Below the pieces are notes generated by a model, which was not told where the DNA came from, made no database searches, and saw only the letters and a program-made list of their open reading frames with translations. The translations under genes were made by a program, and so were the position numbers. DNA of 64,000 bases from Candidatus Bathyarchaeota archaeon (GTDB lineage: Archaea > Thermoproteota > Bathyarchaeia > Bathyarchaeales > Bathyarchaeaceae). The stretch covers positions 140,271 through 204,270 of the forward strand of contig JASFHP010000001.1 in the NCBI GenBank assembly GCA_050123155.1. The letters are read 5' to 3'. Positions 5,786 to 11,267 of the stretch are shown one piece after another (within the stretch, counting starts at the first letter, position 1; each line of letters begins with the position of its first letter).

Positions 5786-6199
5786 TTATTCGAGGTCGTC
5801 TAACATTTCCTTCAGAGATTCTACTTCTTCTCGAAGCGAGGCTACCTCTTTCTCCAGAGTGCTGGCTTTCTCTTCTCCTGCTCTCTTGAGGTTCTCTATT
5901 TCTTCCAAAAGTTCAGTTCTCTTGCTTCTCAGTTTCTCAATTTTCTCCTTCAAGTCCCCCAACGTCTGCACAAGCCTCCTCTCAATTCCCTTAATTTCCT
6001 TAACCATGCCTTTAAAATTTACCCTCTCTTTTCCTTTCCCCACAACCTCACGGAAACTTTTTTTGCATACAGGACACGTGAAGAGCCCCAAAGTAAGCTT
6101 GAATCTTTCACCAGTTTTGCTGGGTCTGCCAACCATAGACCACGTTTTGGTTGGTTCGGTCACTTTGGTTCCACATCTGGGGCACACTGACAACTGCAA
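5786..6199 (-). CDS. Zinc-ribbon plus coiled-coil protein
   Basis: CPRCG...(x31)...CPVCKK zinc ribbon followed by a heptad-rich Glu/Lys/Leu C-terminus. The overlapping plus-strand ORF 5775-6212 is a Ser/Leu-rich shadow. Confidence 0.6.
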   Translation of the reverse strand: MQLSVCPRCGTKVTEPTKTWSMVGRPSKTGERFKLTLGLFTCPVCKKSFREVVGKGKERVNFKGMVKEIKGIERRLVQTLGDLKEKIEKLRSKRTELLEEIENLKRAGEEKASTLEKEVASLREEVESLKEMLDDLE

Positions 6200-6950: not shown

Positions 6951-7952
6951 ATGCTAAAGGAAGAAAATGGTATGAAACCAGATGAAGTAGACTTGGTTAA
7001 ACTCCTGCCAGAGGCTCGCGCCTTAGTCAGCAAAGTTGTCCAAAAAAATATGGCTGAAGGGATCCTGTTTTCAGCTGGAACTGACACAAGCATAATAGCC
7101 TATGAGGCAGTGAAATACAACCCAGACATTCAGGCGATAACAGTCTCTTTCAAACAAGGAAAACCTAGAGACACCGAATACGTAAAGAAAATGGTGGACT
7201 TTCTTAAACTCAATCACGAAACCCACGTCTTCAATGTGGAAGCCGCAATTGATGCTGCAAAAGACGTCGTTAAGGTGCTGAAGACTTTTGATCCAATGGA
7301 CGTCAGAAACACTCTTCCAGCATACATAGGATTAAAGGTAGCTAAAGAGAAAGGCCTCAAAAGCGTTATTACAGGCGATGCTTTAGACGAGCTCTTCGGT
7401 TATCCTTGGCAATTCCATCTATCCGAAACCGAGTTTGCTAAGGCATTATCTGATATGTGGGGCGAAATGGCCTTCTCCTCTACGCCTATGGGCGATTCAA
7501 TTGGCGTAAAAGTGCATCAACCCTATCTTGATCCCCTGTTCATGGACTACGCGAAGAAGCTTCCAGTGAGCCTCAAAGTAAACCTTCATAATGGAGAGAA
7601 ATATGGCAAATGGCTTCTCCGCAAAGCCTATGACGGATTCATTCCAGACGACGTAATCTGGCGAGGAAAAGCGCCTCTAGAACAAGGAACAGGAACATGG
7701 GTTCTGCCAGACTACTTTGAAGAAAAGATGCCGACAGCAGATTTCGAGGAGAAAAAGAAACTTATCCTAGAAGAAGACGATGTGGTAATCACTTCCAAAG
7801 AGCAACTGATATACTACGAGATTTTCAGAAAAACTTTCGGAAAACCCTCCGAAGTCTACGGTGAACCTGTCGGCAAACAATGTCCCAAATGCAAAGGATA
7901 CGTTAAAACAAAAATCGGATTCTGCAAAATCTGCGGAAACTACCCCATATAA
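6951..7952 (+). CDS. Asparagine-synthase-like synthetase domain only, with C-terminal zinc ribbon
   Basis: Blocks typical of the AsnB C-terminal domain are present (ITGDALDELFGYPW, KWLLRKAYDGFIPDDVIWRGK). The PP-loop position reads SAGTDTS instead of SGGxDS. There is no glutaminase domain. C-terminal CPKC...CKIC. Confidence 0.7.
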   Translation: MLKEENGMKPDEVDLVKLLPEARALVSKVVQKNMAEGILFSAGTDTSIIAYEAVKYNPDIQAITVSFKQGKPRDTEYVKKMVDFLKLNHETHVFNVEAAIDAAKDVVKVLKTFDPMDVRNTLPAYIGLKVAKEKGLKSVITGDALDELFGYPWQFHLSETEFAKALSDMWGEMAFSSTPMGDSIGVKVHQPYLDPLFMDYAKKLPVSLKVNLHNGEKYGKWLLRKAYDGFIPDDVIWRGKAPLEQGTGTWVLPDYFEEKMPTADFEEKKKLILEEDDVVITSKEQLIYYEIFRKTFGKPSEVYGEPVGKQCPKCKGYVKTKIGFCKICGNYPI

Positions 7953-8045
7953 CAAAGTGGTCAATACTCCAAATATTAACCACAAAAAATTTCTGCGGTA
8001 TAAAAAAAATGCTATTTCAATAAGTTCATTAAGACAAAAAACATA

Positions 8046-8408
8046 CTACAAGTGTTGGAAATCTGGAAGGTAGCTATTAATCAAACGATCTATGTCCTGT
8101 TGTGATATGTGATTTTCACTGTCAGGGTTATACCGAGCAACACGACTCTTATTATAAAGCGTTTGATACTTAGTTGAAACTGACCTCAAGTGAACTGAAA
8201 CATATCTATTTCTTCCGTGAGCCCCACCATGAACATCTGGATGAATATTTAGACGTGCCAGTCGTGAATCAACGTAATGTAAGCAAGCATAAAATAATAT
8301 AACGACTCTCCAATCATTAAATCCCGTTGTAGGTAAATTGTTATTCAGTAGACTGAGATTATGTTGAGCTTTTCTAATATGTGAAGGTCTGTCTCCCATT
8401 GACGTCAT
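8046..8408 (-). CDS. HEPN-like small protein, last gene of the AT-rich cassette
   Basis: Helical pattern KAQHNLSLL / WRVVILFYACLHYVDSRL. HGRNRYVSVH fits R-x4-6-H. YNKSRVARYNP resembles the Y..aRYP ending of classical HEPN domains. ATGA overlap with the upstream gene. Confidence 0.5.
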   Translation of the reverse strand: MTSMGDRPSHIRKAQHNLSLLNNNLPTTGFNDWRVVILFYACLHYVDSRLARLNIHPDVHGGAHGRNRYVSVHLRSVSTKYQTLYNKSRVARYNPDSENHISQQDIDRLINSYLPDFQHL

Positions 8409-8857
8409 CTCAATTCATTTTCTGGGAAAACTTTGATACTGTTATTGGGAAGTACATTCTGAAGATTCTGTTCATATAGTGGGTAAACCATGAAATCAAG
8501 ATCAAGTTCATTGTGTATACGCATTAATTCACACTGGGCTTCAGCGATTCTTTCCTCAACATTCAAATCATTTTCTCTAATGAATGTCCAAATGTCCACT
8601 AATTCTTCTTTTTCTATATAGTAAACCGCTTCGACTAGGTCAAGTTCATTGATTCTGTCGATATACAAATTTAGTGCAAAAACAAGACCCATTTTTTTTA
8701 TTAAGTTTTTCATGTCCTGTTGATAAACTTCCAAATTTTTTTTCAAAATATAATTCTTTTTCTTTTCTTCCTGTAATTTTAGGTGAGTCAAGCAGACACG
8801 ATCGCATCCCTGATAATCACCAACAGATTTAATAAAATCATAATGTTGTTCAGACAT
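8405..8857 (-). CDS. Hypothetical protein, middle gene of the AT-rich cassette
   Basis: ORF 8405-8911. The start at MSEQHYDF (8857) leaves a 6-nt gap after the upstream gene. No motif recognised, and no GS...D.D nucleotidyltransferase signature. Confidence 0.5.
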   Translation of the reverse strand: MSEQHYDFIKSVGDYQGCDRVCLTHLKLQEEKKKNYILKKNLEVYQQDMKNLIKKMGLVFALNLYIDRINELDLVEAVYYIEKEELVDIWTFIRENDLNVEERIAEAQCELMRIHNELDLDFMVYPLYEQNLQNVLPNNSIKVFPENELR

Positions 8858-9683
8858 TGGAATCCTCCACAAATAGTTTTGAAGATTCAACTCCATATTC
8901 ACAAACATCATTTAAAATGTTTTGAGAAATTTTGATTTTGGCAGAAAATTCTGAAAAGAAGGTGAAAGTATTTTTTCTAAATTCAAAACGGATTCTGTCA
9001 AGATTGGATGGAGAATCCTCAAAAGAAAGCTGAAGACCCGTAACATCAGCCTCACCTAAACGTTTTACAACATCTTTGGATAGCGGAATTTTCGTAGGTA
9101 AACTGAATCCACCTATAAGTTTATGCTTTTTTCTGCTAAATACAAACGTTACACAACCATTAACCACAACAAGTTTCGATTGCTTAATAGACAATATTTG
9201 TAAAAATTTTTTAATGGAAGCGTTTAGTTGAATTTTTTTAGTAAAATTTACAGGGCGCTTTTTGTTTTTTGGTTCACATCTCAAACTGAAGTGTACAATG
9301 CCTTCTTCTTCTGACCTTTTGTATTCTCTGAATTTTTTAACGTTGGCAATAACTTTCTTTCGGAGTGTTTCTATCTTCTTACTCAGCTCTGGAGGAGCTT
9401 CTTTAAAATCCTTTTCAAATTCACTTATTAGTTTCTTTTTTGATGGAACTGAATAAACGCCTAAACGAATGATGTTAGATTTAATTGGGTATTTTTGGAT
9501 AAAATAGATAAACCCCATTTTGTTAATCGGATTTTTTTCAATATTAAAAATATCAAATAATTGGGAGTTAATTTCTTCTAATTTGCTTTGAGATAAAATA
9601 ATACCCGTACACATACACAAACTCGAAAATAACTGCTCCATTTTTGAAGAATCACTCCAAATAAGTATTAGCTTTTCACACAT
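8850..9683 (-). CDS. Hypothetical Lys-rich protein, first gene of the AT-rich cassette
   Basis: 277-aa ORF in very AT-rich DNA. No Walker, nuclease or other motif recognised. Confidence 0.5.
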   Translation of the reverse strand: MCEKLILIWSDSSKMEQLFSSLCMCTGIILSQSKLEEINSQLFDIFNIEKNPINKMGFIYFIQKYPIKSNIIRLGVYSVPSKKKLISEFEKDFKEAPPELSKKIETLRKKVIANVKKFREYKRSEEEGIVHFSLRCEPKNKKRPVNFTKKIQLNASIKKFLQILSIKQSKLVVVNGCVTFVFSRKKHKLIGGFSLPTKIPLSKDVVKRLGEADVTGLQLSFEDSPSNLDRIRFEFRKNTFTFFSEFSAKIKISQNILNDVCEYGVESSKLFVEDSNV

Positions 9684-10064
9684 AACTTTCTTTCTATTTA
9701 TAAATCTATATTCTAGACCAAAAAAGGTGTGAAACAGATTTCTGCGGGCGCGTCTATTGAGATTTTGTCAAAGACAATTAAGAGATTAATTCTATCGAAA
9801 AAATGTGGAAGTGCTGGATTTTAACGGATGATAACCCCATTTGTCCCCTGTGCAAATCCTCGTGACCCCATCACGCGGAACAGGGGGCAGTTCACTTCGG
9901 TTAGTTAAATATACCTTTGCAGTTCTTGTGATAGTTAACTCCACAATTAATGATGATTACGCCCAATTAAAGTAACTTCGGCGTTACACTAATGATAACT
10001 ACCTTAGTTGCTGTGCATCAGCTACCCAAACATAACTGTTTGTTGTCCAACCGTATCCAAACAC

Positions 10065-10118
10065 ATTAGGAGACCAATAACAGAAGATTGCTGAAAACAG
10101 CTTTTTCTATGCAAGAAA
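10065..10118 (+). repeat. Interspersed ~50-bp repeat, copy B
   Basis: attaggagaccaataacagaagattgctgaaaacagctttttct... is the first of three tandem degenerate copies between the TFB 3' end and the AT-rich cassette. Confidence 0.8.
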
Positions 10119-10161
10119 ATGTGAACTCAGGAGACGAAAAAATTGCGCGGACGGCGTCTAT

Positions 10162-10210
10162 CAGTCTCCTAATAACAGATGATTGTTGAAAAAAAGCTTT
10201 TTTCTGAAAT
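10162..10210 (+). repeat. Interspersed ~50-bp repeat, copy C
   Basis: cagtctcctaataacagatgattgttgaaaaaaagcttttttctgaaat. The leading octamer agtctcct is the inverse complement of the aggagact seen in the other copies. Confidence 0.75.
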
Positions 10211-10261
10211 TCAGCAGCACAGCACCAAAACGCCGCAGACAGTTCACACAAACAAGCCAAA

Positions 10262-10295
10262 ACATTGTTGAGAACAGTCTTTTTTCTGATTTTCT
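10262..10295 (+). repeat. Interspersed repeat, copy D (3' half only)
   Basis: acattgttgagaacagtcttttttctgattttc matches the 3' half of the consensus. Confidence 0.65.
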
Positions 10296-10331: not shown

Positions 10332-11267
10332 CTAGAGGTAGATTACAAACTGGAGTCGTTCAACCAGTTCTTTGTAGCGGTTTCTTATGGTTACTTCTGT
10401 CACCTGGGCAATCTCCGCGATTTCTCTCTGGGTTTTTCTTTCTCCAGTCAGAACCGACGCAATGTAGCTGGCTGCCGCGGCTATGCCTGTGGGTCCTCTC
10501 CCTGACGTGAGCTTCATCTCTTTGGCTGCGCCGAGAATCTTGTGAGCAATCTCCTCAACCTTTCCCTGCATGGTCAGCTGGTTAGAAAACTTGGTTATGT
10601 ACTGGCTTGGCTTCAGGGGCGGAATAAAGTAGTTAAGTTCCTTTATTAGAAAACGGTAGCTTCGCCCAACCTCTTTCTTGTTTACAGTAGAAGCCTGCGC
10701 AATCTCGTCCAGAGTTCTAGCCACTCCACACTGTCGACAAGCCACGTAAATAGCGGCGGCAGTTACACCCTGAATAGACCTTCCTCGGATGAGACGCTCC
10801 TTAACAGCTTTACGATAGATAACTGAGGCAGTCTCAAGAATGTTTTTGGGCAAATTCAGATTATTAGCTATCTTAGATATCTCGGAAAGAGCAAAAGCAA
10901 GGTTTCGCTCAGTGGCGTCGGAGACTCTGATTCGTCGCTGCCACTTCCGCAACCTGTAAATTTGAGCCTTCTGACCCGGAGCAATCCTCTTGCCGTAAAC
11001 GTCCCGATCATGCCAGTCAATCATAGTTGAGAGACCTTTATCATGAATCGTGAATGTAAGTGGAGCACCGGCTCTGGCACGTTTAGCGCGCTGCTCATCA
11101 TCAAATGCTCGCCACTCTGGCCCTTGATCTGCAAGTTTGGCGGCGACGACGAAGCCGCAGTTCATGCAGACTATTTCAGCGCATTCGTAGTCTCGCATGA
11201 GACGATTGCTTCCGCATTCAGGGCATCTCCGAATCCTTGGAGGTTGTTGGATGTTTTCTTTTGTCAT
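10332..11267 (-). CDS. tfb: Transcription initiation factor IIB (TFB)
   Basis: N-terminal zinc ribbon CPECGS...CMNCG, then two cyclin-like repeats ([18 protein letters not shown] / [16 protein letters not shown]). Confidence 0.95.

Follow-up and report, generated by a model that had tools for sequence, protein, structure and literature searches.

Three small co-directional genes, here called A, B and C, form a cassette on the minus strand of a 64,000-nucleotide (nt) stretch of a Candidatus Bathyarchaeota metagenome-assembled genome (NCBI locus tags PVH73_00755 and PVH73_00760; contig JASFHP010000001.1, positions 140,271 to 204,270), and this whole stretch is referred to below as the window. 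The last of the three genes, C, is predicted to encode a protein with the HEPN fold, and the gene directly ahead of it, B, is homologous to a partner family that precedes C-like genes in a wide range of bacteria. On balance we lean towards reading the cassette as a horizontally acquired, mobile and self-promoted three-gene operon with a toxin–antitoxin-like B-C core and a clade-specific gene A. C would be the presumed effector, acting either as an RNase through an alternative active site or by binding RNA or nucleotides, and its retained motif arginine (R89-Y90) together with an invariant pair in an inserted segment (H57/R63) would form the candidate site. B, encoded immediately upstream and probably translationally coupled, would neutralise or regulate C by direct binding, while the faster-evolving A would serve the pair as regulator, sensor or accessory factor. 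The archaeal B-C pair would be an offshoot of a two-gene module widespread in bacteria, and the triplet would travel on small mobile elements, its purpose being stabilisation of the element (addiction) and/or defence. Toxicity, RNase activity, neutralisation by binding, the role of A and the addiction or defence purpose are the parts of this reading that we infer. The three genes are:

8850..9683, minus strand: gene A, an open reading frame of 277 amino acids (aa), likely 263 aa from the ATG at 9641; an orphan.
8405..8857, minus strand: gene B, 150 aa from the ATG at 8857 (open reading frame 8405-8911); putative neutraliser and cognate partner of the HEPN protein.
8046..8408, minus strand: gene C, an open reading frame of 120 aa, likely 117 aa from the ATG at 8399; predicted HEPN fold of the AF0298-like / PF05168 (HEPN-T, UPF0332) type.

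An earlier note on this DNA had drawn attention to these three minus-strand reading frames, and its coordinates agree with the list of open reading frames. It had also proposed looking for the triplet in other genomes. A word-indexed search of 5.8 billion proteins returned, besides the window's own proteins, three homologues of C, one of A and seven of B. The cassette is now represented by nine independent metagenome contigs (L001, L002, L004-L009 and L043), three of which were found later than the protein search, and the order A-B-C is the same in all of them, the contig of L008 stopping before C. Two further sequences are an identical copy of the window (L003) and a B-C fragment (L042). Identity to the window proteins ranges from 22 to 60% for A, from 50 to 63% for B and from 41 to 70% for C. 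Across seven loci all three genes show far fewer nonsynonymous (pN) than synonymous (pS) differences, and their synonymous sites are saturated; the ratio of the corresponding rates (dN/dS), where it could be computed, was 0.17-0.54 for A and lower, about 0.05-0.18, for B and C. A, B and C are genuine protein-coding genes under purifying selection, A being the least constrained. The archaeal set is also rare: a scan with the invariant motif of B found no match in 185,579 GTDB species-representative genomes, in IMG/VR or in JGI metagenome contigs, a scan of IMG/VR with A was equally negative, and tblastn of A and C against plasmid and phage collections gave no match.

Taken alone, C matches no Pfam family even at E ≤ 10, and nothing significant was found for it in NCBIfam, PHROGs, PADLOC or the sequences of the PDB. 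An exhaustive search of 1.84 billion cluster representatives with a profile of the C clade recovered a family of proteins of about 120 aa, with 1458 representatives at E ≤ 1e-3 and 95 at E ≤ 1e-10, which corresponds to about 1,450 clusters at 50% identity from many bacterial phyla. Eighty-five members were sampled for the residue and Pfam counts reported here. Twenty-eight of these individually match the Pfam HEPN family PF05168 (best E 5.8e-8), no other family recurs, and the names given to family members at their source include "HEPN domain-containing protein" and "UPF0332 family". The archaeal C clade and the mainstream bacterial branch align with each other in hhalign at a probability of 99.8% (E 4e-29). 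Judged by these profile links, C is related to PF05168 transitively, though it has no direct match to that family.

The structural prediction agrees with this assignment. An AlphaFold2 model of C, built on the 85-sequence alignment, reached a predicted local distance difference test score (pLDDT) of 96.2 and a predicted template modelling score (pTM) of 0.89; an earlier run with a 4-sequence alignment (pLDDT 46) was discarded. The modelled helices span residues 4-20, 28-49, 63-90 (with a kink at 71) and 100-115, with an insert at 50-62 between the second and the third. In a Foldseek comparison of this model with the PDB, ranks 1-22 are all HEPN proteins, several HepT toxins among them. The best match is AF_0298 (2hsb; probability 1.00, template modelling (TM) score 0.70, root mean square deviation 3.2 Å), and further matches are TT1696 (1ufb), ST0689 (1wol, TM 0.68) and TM0613 (1o3u), while the HEPN domain of sacsin stands at rank 25 (TM 0.70). 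The viral fold library BFVD gave no meaningful match. The model therefore predicts a HEPN fold for C, a four-helix up-down bundle, and the HEPN-like character that the earlier note had read from the sequence of C is supported by model, fold comparison, PF05168 links, source names and profile alignment alike.

The helix-HP(D)-helix arrangement and a ...Y..L...R..Y likeness to DnaJ raise the alternative that C is a fragment of a J-domain-like co-chaperone, which we consider extremely improbable. Its profile does weakly match J-domain sequences of the PDB (E between 0.006 and 0.8; 6rzy 0.006, 2ctq 0.12), as single members match DnaJ/HscB models of NCBIfam, but the Asp of HPD is unconserved even within the tight clade (IHPD, IHPS, IHPI), no J-domain occurs among the top 50 fold matches, whose first 22 are all HEPN, and DnaJ is not among the 25 most frequent Pfam families listed for the relatives, 28 of 85 of which match HEPN. 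The Pfam counts and the Foldseek list effectively refute a J-domain identity. Other weak single-sequence library matches of A, B or C (JetB, RecU, an aminopeptidase and PHROG unknowns, E 0.01-0.09) were dismissed, and the phmmer and profile matches to PDB sequences (GDF5, J-domains, gp12, a GAF-based protein, GyrB) were at chance level.

In canonical HEPN proteins the metal-independent RNase site is the R-x4-6-H motif. The HEPN classification puts this motif where helix 3 ends (Anantharaman et al. 2013, PMC3710099), which helps in considering where an active site of C, if there is one, may lie. According to the same study, the AF0298-like HEPN-T proteins are without the motif His and keep the basic residue, and a His in the segment inserted between helices 2 and 3 is strongly conserved in them, an arrangement suggested as a possible alternative active site. 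C conserves a non-canonical set of residues, namely H7, N14, W30, Y37, H41, H57, R63, Y78, S85, R89 and Y90. R89 and Y90 are each present in 84 of 85 relatives and lie at the end of helix 3 ("SRxARY"), the expected position of the motif, so that the resemblance of the "ARY.P" end to classical HEPN domains, already remarked upon, holds. Around the insert, H57 occurs in all 85, R63 in 84 and H53 in 68, and other near-invariant residues are H7 (84/85), N14 (82/85), W30 and Y37 (both 85/85) and H41 (80/85). Since the polar residues H7, N14, H41, H57, R63, S85, R89 and Y90 are near-invariant, their conservation suggests a functional site. By these sequence features C fits the AF0298-type pattern, with the motif His absent, the basic residue kept and an insert His conserved.

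The stretch HGRNRYVSVH, previously put forward as the RNase motif, is not supported in that role. Its residues 61-70 run from the insert into the first part of helix 3, away from the canonical position, and they are little conserved: H70 is found in 11 of 85 relatives and R65 in 16 of 85, the pattern R63-x4-6-H in 17 of 85, and within the tight archaeal clade the H is replaced by N or Q in two homologues.

The protein encoded by B consists of an N-terminal extension (C18-x3-C22, followed by a charged helix) and a C-terminal domain of about 90 residues (approximately 58-147) that contains the invariant block IAEAQCELMRIH. This domain has no match in Pfam, NCBIfam, PADLOC or PDB sequences. Its relatives emerged from a scan of GTDB species representatives with the mainstream C branch, which gave 31 bacterial loci from Chloroflexota, Acidobacteriota, Nitrospirota, Methylomirabilis, Planctomycetota, Thermus, Clostridia and others. 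In nearly all of these the C-like gene is immediately preceded, on its own strand, by a tightly coupled open reading frame of 100-200 aa. The upstream reading frames are members of a single family, to which BLASTP links B with values from 3e-7 (the partner in L014) to 2e-4 within this small set. In hhalign, residues 58-147 of B align with the bacterial partner family at a probability of 98.2% (E 5.5e-14). When a hidden Markov model of the partner domain was applied to the 31 bacterial loci, 22 had a B-like gene immediately ahead of the C-like one, and two further bacterial pairs that did not contribute to the profile, L045 and L048, have it as well (97.9% and 97.0%).

As the earlier note had observed, the proteins encoded upstream of C show no sign of being a minimal nucleotidyltransferase (MNT), the usual partner of such HEPN proteins. 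Neither B nor 16-19 partner homologues carry a G-S or D-x-D motif or any polar residue conserved family-wide, B has no Pfam match to NTP_transf_2/Polbeta, and no MNT is found among its PDB sequence matches at E ≤ 10. From its sequence we conclude that B is not an MNT. The residue pattern of the domain points to a hydrophobic alpha-beta-beta-alpha-beta-beta arrangement, and because it is without conserved catalytic residues, B would neutralise or regulate C by binding and not by nucleotidylation; non-enzymatic binding is its most likely mode of action. Partner-first order with overlapping or near-abutting genes is typical of type II toxin–antitoxin operons, and this generic layout fits B-C: both genes are small and co-directional, the partner comes first, the gap is 5 nt (or the overlap 4 nt, depending on the start of C) and the distribution is patchy.

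The N-terminal parts of the partners vary. In the archaeal B, C18-x3-C22 together with C109-x5-H115 may, speculatively, form a metal site. A bacterial B-like partner in L019 (742-1263) has an N-terminal C-x2-C ... C-x2-C zinc-ribbon ahead of the B-domain, and because of this zinc-ribbon the variable N-terminal extensions of B-like partners may bind nucleic acid. Variation in copy number was also seen: in L022 (2108-2998) two B-domains stand in tandem within one reading frame of 241 aa ahead of the C-like gene, and a Dehalococcoidia locus, L020 (2668-3833), has two tandem B-like/C-like pairs, the second C-like reading frame being short and possibly truncated.

Mobility of the cassette is supported by its low GC content, by an integrase gene upstream of it in three loci (L004, L007 and L043) and by its patchy and rare distribution. 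In the window its GC content is 32.6%, compared with 43-46% in the flanks, and in every locus the cassette lies about 11 GC points below its surroundings, the integrase included (30.3% vs 42.5% in L004; 36.6% vs 47.4% in L043). In L004 (E 1e-15) and L043 (E 1.3e-15) the gene that immediately precedes A, on its strand, encodes a tyrosine integrase (PF00589). The integrase of L007 takes the same position and is represented by its C-terminal part, as the contig is cut there; it matches at E 1.9e-5 with 25.0 bits, against a Pfam cut-off of 27.1. In L004 and L043 the integrase and A-B-C alone make up an insert of about 4 kb, bracketed by host-type genes (TFS-like, an NTP-transferase gene and a DeoC-family aldolase gene).

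Other loci present the cassette in other surroundings. L006 has a gene for a helix-turn-helix (HTH) protein upstream of it, and in L008 A is N-terminally replaced. Directly upstream of this truncated A, a 137-aa reading frame (L008, 518-931) weakly matches PF05168 (E 0.04), and its sequence may represent a second, unrelated HEPN-like gene on the same element. A 217-aa reading frame upstream in L009 (94-747), with no Pfam match, contains FMTLTSS and LHIVF, which by eye look like those of a rolling-circle Rep. Among the bacteria, the B-C pair of L048 lies among Uma2, a ResIII/DEAD helicase, an HTH-GNAT protein, DUF790 and a second PF05168 HEPN, and another pair is separated from an integrase by about 5 kb that holds small unannotated genes. 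Because tblastn found no integrase or Rep remnant in the window, the window copy looks like a stranded or fixed cassette. No tRNA genes were found near the cassette or in eight related loci. Repeats resembling attachment (att) sites, CCGCAGAAAT flanking the window cassette and a 12/23-nt repeat flanking integrase-A-B-C in L043, were within chance expectation and were not used.

Several observations weigh against the reading that we prefer. The Foldseek E-values for C are weak (best 0.016) despite good probabilities and TM-scores, and the fold is therefore assigned from how consistently HEPN proteins fill the list, together with the profile evidence. The pattern R89-x4-6-H occurs in just 6 of 85 relatives, which means that the canonical catalytic His is missing from C and, for that reason, C could be non-catalytic. 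The window cassette stands among housekeeping genes with no defence genes near it, and PADLOC has no model for either the B or the C family. A defence-island setting, which the earlier note had proposed to test for, was not borne out in the window, since the neighbours, namely an Asn-synthase-like gene (6951-7952), TFB (10332-11267) and genes for an ArsB/CitMHS transporter and for SRP19-like and S8e-like proteins, are of housekeeping type, and neither A, B and C nor their families matched PADLOC. Finally, the integrase, with its host-like GC content, and A-B-C may not be a single unit, the gap of about 11 points suggesting perhaps different histories; the cassette may be a unit in its own right.

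These observations bring forward an explanation in which C is a non-catalytic HEPN adaptor or ligand binder and B-C, joined in archaea by A, a regulatory or housekeeping complex of the mobile element, concerned with integration, excision or copy number. We judge it unlikely, if a serious contender. A non-catalytic binding role is considered probable for many of the HEPN domains in which the motif is missing (PMC3710099). Precedents for inactive HEPN domains are MtlR and the MNT-fused forms. With the canonical R-x4-6-H absent and PADLOC silent, such a role would also suit the position of the triplet right after an integrase in three loci and as the sole other cargo of the insert of about 4 kb in L004 and L043. 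Yet some ten near-invariant polar residues across a very diverse family are more typical of an enzyme or a specific ligand site than of a scaffold. Moreover, the surroundings of the cassette vary: the window copy has no integrase, the one in L009 adjoins a Rep-like gene, and those in L006 and L008 adjoin unrelated small genes. Because of these varied contexts the cassette behaves as portable cargo and not as core machinery of the element. In most of the bacterial loci examined, whose neighbours are partly annotated, no integrase was identified beside B-C.

Gene A is the orphan of the cassette. In its product an N-terminal C-x-C and a third Cys are conserved, the middle is helical and rich in K/E, and a conserved domain of about 130 aa at the C-terminus carries the block K..GGF.LPTKIP....RLGEA..SG..L.F..SP...LF.E. 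No match to A was found in Pfam, NCBIfam, PHROGs, PADLOC, PDB sequences, plasmids, phages or IMG/VR. Homologues of A occur in A-B-C triplets only, where tblastn detected them at 30-60% identity. Distant versions in L009 and L043 accompany distant B-C pairs (hhalign 98.8% each), and none of the 31 bacterial B-C loci has an A-like reading frame; a 224-aa gene in the position of A in one bacterial B-C locus proved unrelated.

One might instead see in A the true effector or sensor of a three-component anti-virus defence system, acting on an invader or recognising it, with B-C as its abortive-infection switch, carried as cargo by archaeal integrative elements. This would fit the size and pace of A, which is the largest and fastest evolving of the three (dN/dS ~0.17-0.54 vs ~0.05-0.18), as is common for components in conflict with invaders, as well as its constant place upstream in the archaeal clade, its 8-nt overlap with B, the mobile-element location and the low GC content. 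We nevertheless rate this possibility as quite improbable, given that none of the known sensor, nuclease, ATPase or defence domains was matched by A, that IMG/VR and the phage collections yielded no virus-related context and that the bacterial B-C pairs work without A.

HEPN proteins are effectors of many toxin–antitoxin, abortive-infection and CRISPR-ancillary systems, and the toxin–antitoxin-like B-C core favoured here can be compared with several of them. C is closest to the AF_0298-like HEPN-T proteins (PF05168/UPF0332; 2hsb, 1ufb TT1696, 1wol ST0689, 1o3u TM0613), which have the same predicted fold (TM 0.64-0.70, probability 0.94-1.00), the same size of about 120 aa and the same motif variant, with the basic residue of "aRY", no motif His and an insert His. 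It differs from them in lying below Pfam thresholds on its own, in its identity of 13-16% to the solved structures and in its non-MNT partner, and its family adds the invariant residues H7 and N14 of helix 1 and R63. The HEPN-MNT systems (HepT-MntA type VII; SO_3166/SO_3165; Aphanizomenon HEPN/MNT; 5yep, 6m6u, 7bxo, 7ae2, 8xeh) likewise place a small HEPN gene directly downstream of a small partner gene and are mobile and patchy in distribution. In contrast to these, B is without G-S...D-x-D, C is without the R-x4-6-H used by those toxins, and the cassette has a third gene; because B is without nucleotidyltransferase motifs, neutralisation by AMPylation is not expected here.

A further comparison is offered by the extra gene of three-component toxin–antitoxin operons (omega-epsilon-zeta, paaR-paaA-parE, HipBST), which is a small DNA-binding regulator or a split toxin or antitoxin domain. 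By general knowledge, these operons resemble the cassette in having three tightly coupled, co-directional small genes on mobile DNA with the toxin-like gene last, but they share no homology with A-B-C, and A, at 263-277 aa, is without a recognisable DNA-binding domain. AbiV, which is grouped with the AF0298-like HEPNs that have an alternative conserved His (PMC3710099), is a shown RNase and antiphage system (bioRxiv 10.1101/2024.05.05.592566). The lactococcal AbiV is a larger protein than C and has an RNA antitoxin (type III); no relationship between its sequence and that of C was detected, and no match came from PADLOC, whose coverage extends to candidate as well as known defence systems.

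The suggestion that the pairing may be new can therefore be retained in part. B-C belongs, as a diverged member, to a two-gene module found widely among bacteria; this module is itself apparently undescribed, and A alone is clade-specific. Literature searches returned no description of the partner family or of the A-B-C triplet, nor do the profile libraries contain a model. What is new is a mobile HEPN module of two or three genes with a non-MNT partner, and the main interest lies beyond the window, in the large bacterial B-like/C-like family. A more far-reaching claim would be that the B-like/C-like pair constitutes an undescribed, widespread class of HEPN two-gene systems with a non-enzymatic partner instead of an MNT and an alternative H57/R63/R89 site, and that in archaea the orphan A supplies an integrase-borne defence or addiction element with a new sensor or effector; we put this forward tentatively, as possible though doubtful.

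To our knowledge, small stand-alone HEPNs of the PF05168 type are understood almost wholly through their MNT partners, and the locus points to a large family of small HEPNs with a different partner domain, one that has no name in Pfam, NCBIfam or PADLOC. If the B-C pair is a toxin–antitoxin or defence module, it would represent a new mode of neutralisation in HEPN biology, and it would offer a handle on whether AF0298-like HEPNs without the motif His are active RNases. We also know of little characterisation of mobile elements from Bathyarchaeota-type archaea, in which the archaeal version would be a compact integrase-plus-cargo element of about 3.5-4 kb.

The gene borders and control signals of the cassette could be refined by comparison among the loci. 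A and B do not leave the 6-nt gap that had been described: they overlap by 8 nt (ATGTCTGA), the stop codon of A being at 8850-8852 and the ATG of B at 8857-8855, and the same 8-nt overlap is present in L002 and L004. Counted from this ATG, B has 150 aa and not 151. The ATGA overlap reported at 8405-8408 between B and C is present in the DNA, but C likely starts later. Because its homologues (n=7) begin at (M/L/V)GDRPSH, with ATG, TTG or GTG as start codon, the true start is likely the ATG at 8399, giving a protein of 117 aa that begins 5 nt past the stop of B. Similarly, the ATG of A at 9683 is 11 nt past a conserved TATA box, and for this reason the true start of A is likely the ATG at 9641 (263 aa), directly before the conserved C-x-C motif. 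Two features outside the genes are:

9695..9704, minus strand: archaeal TATA box TTTATAAATA of the putative cassette promoter, preceded by CACAC.
8002..8041, minus strand: oligo-T tracts 3' of the C stop codon (T6 at 8036-8041, T8 at 8002-8009).

The TATA box is an established element of archaeal promoters, and a promoter role of the one found here would follow from that architecture. The sequence TTTATAA is kept upstream of A in five loci (window, L001, L004, L005 and L007), and L001 and L004 additionally have in common a promoter stretch of 26 nt (E 0.003) and a non-coding upstream element of 39 nt (E 1e-8). Oligo-T tracts have an established role in archaeal transcription termination, and by analogy those following C are likely termination signals. 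A scan for sigma-70 promoters returned chance-level counts and is not applicable to archaea.

Between the start of A and the stop codon of TFB, at 10076-10291 of the window, three copies of a repeat of about 35-39 nt were observed, with start-to-start distances of 95 and 82 nt. Their minus-strand consensus is AGAAAAAAGCTGTTTTCA(A/G)CAATC.TCTGTTATT, and in two copies it is followed by the inverted pair ATTAGGAGAC / GTCTCCTAAT. The core of the repeat resembles the 39-nt element of L001 and L004 (16 nt with 1 mismatch), and the motif GTTTTCASCAAT common to the window repeats and that element was not enriched over shuffled sequences. The repeats could be the leftover end of an element, binding sites or an unrelated feature of the 3' end of TFB. 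On the other side of the cassette, the minus strand at 5786-6199 of the window encodes a protein of 137 aa in which a C-x2-C ... C-x2-C zinc-ribbon at the N-terminus is followed by a long coiled-coil tail; its Pfam matches are weak and of coiled-coil type.

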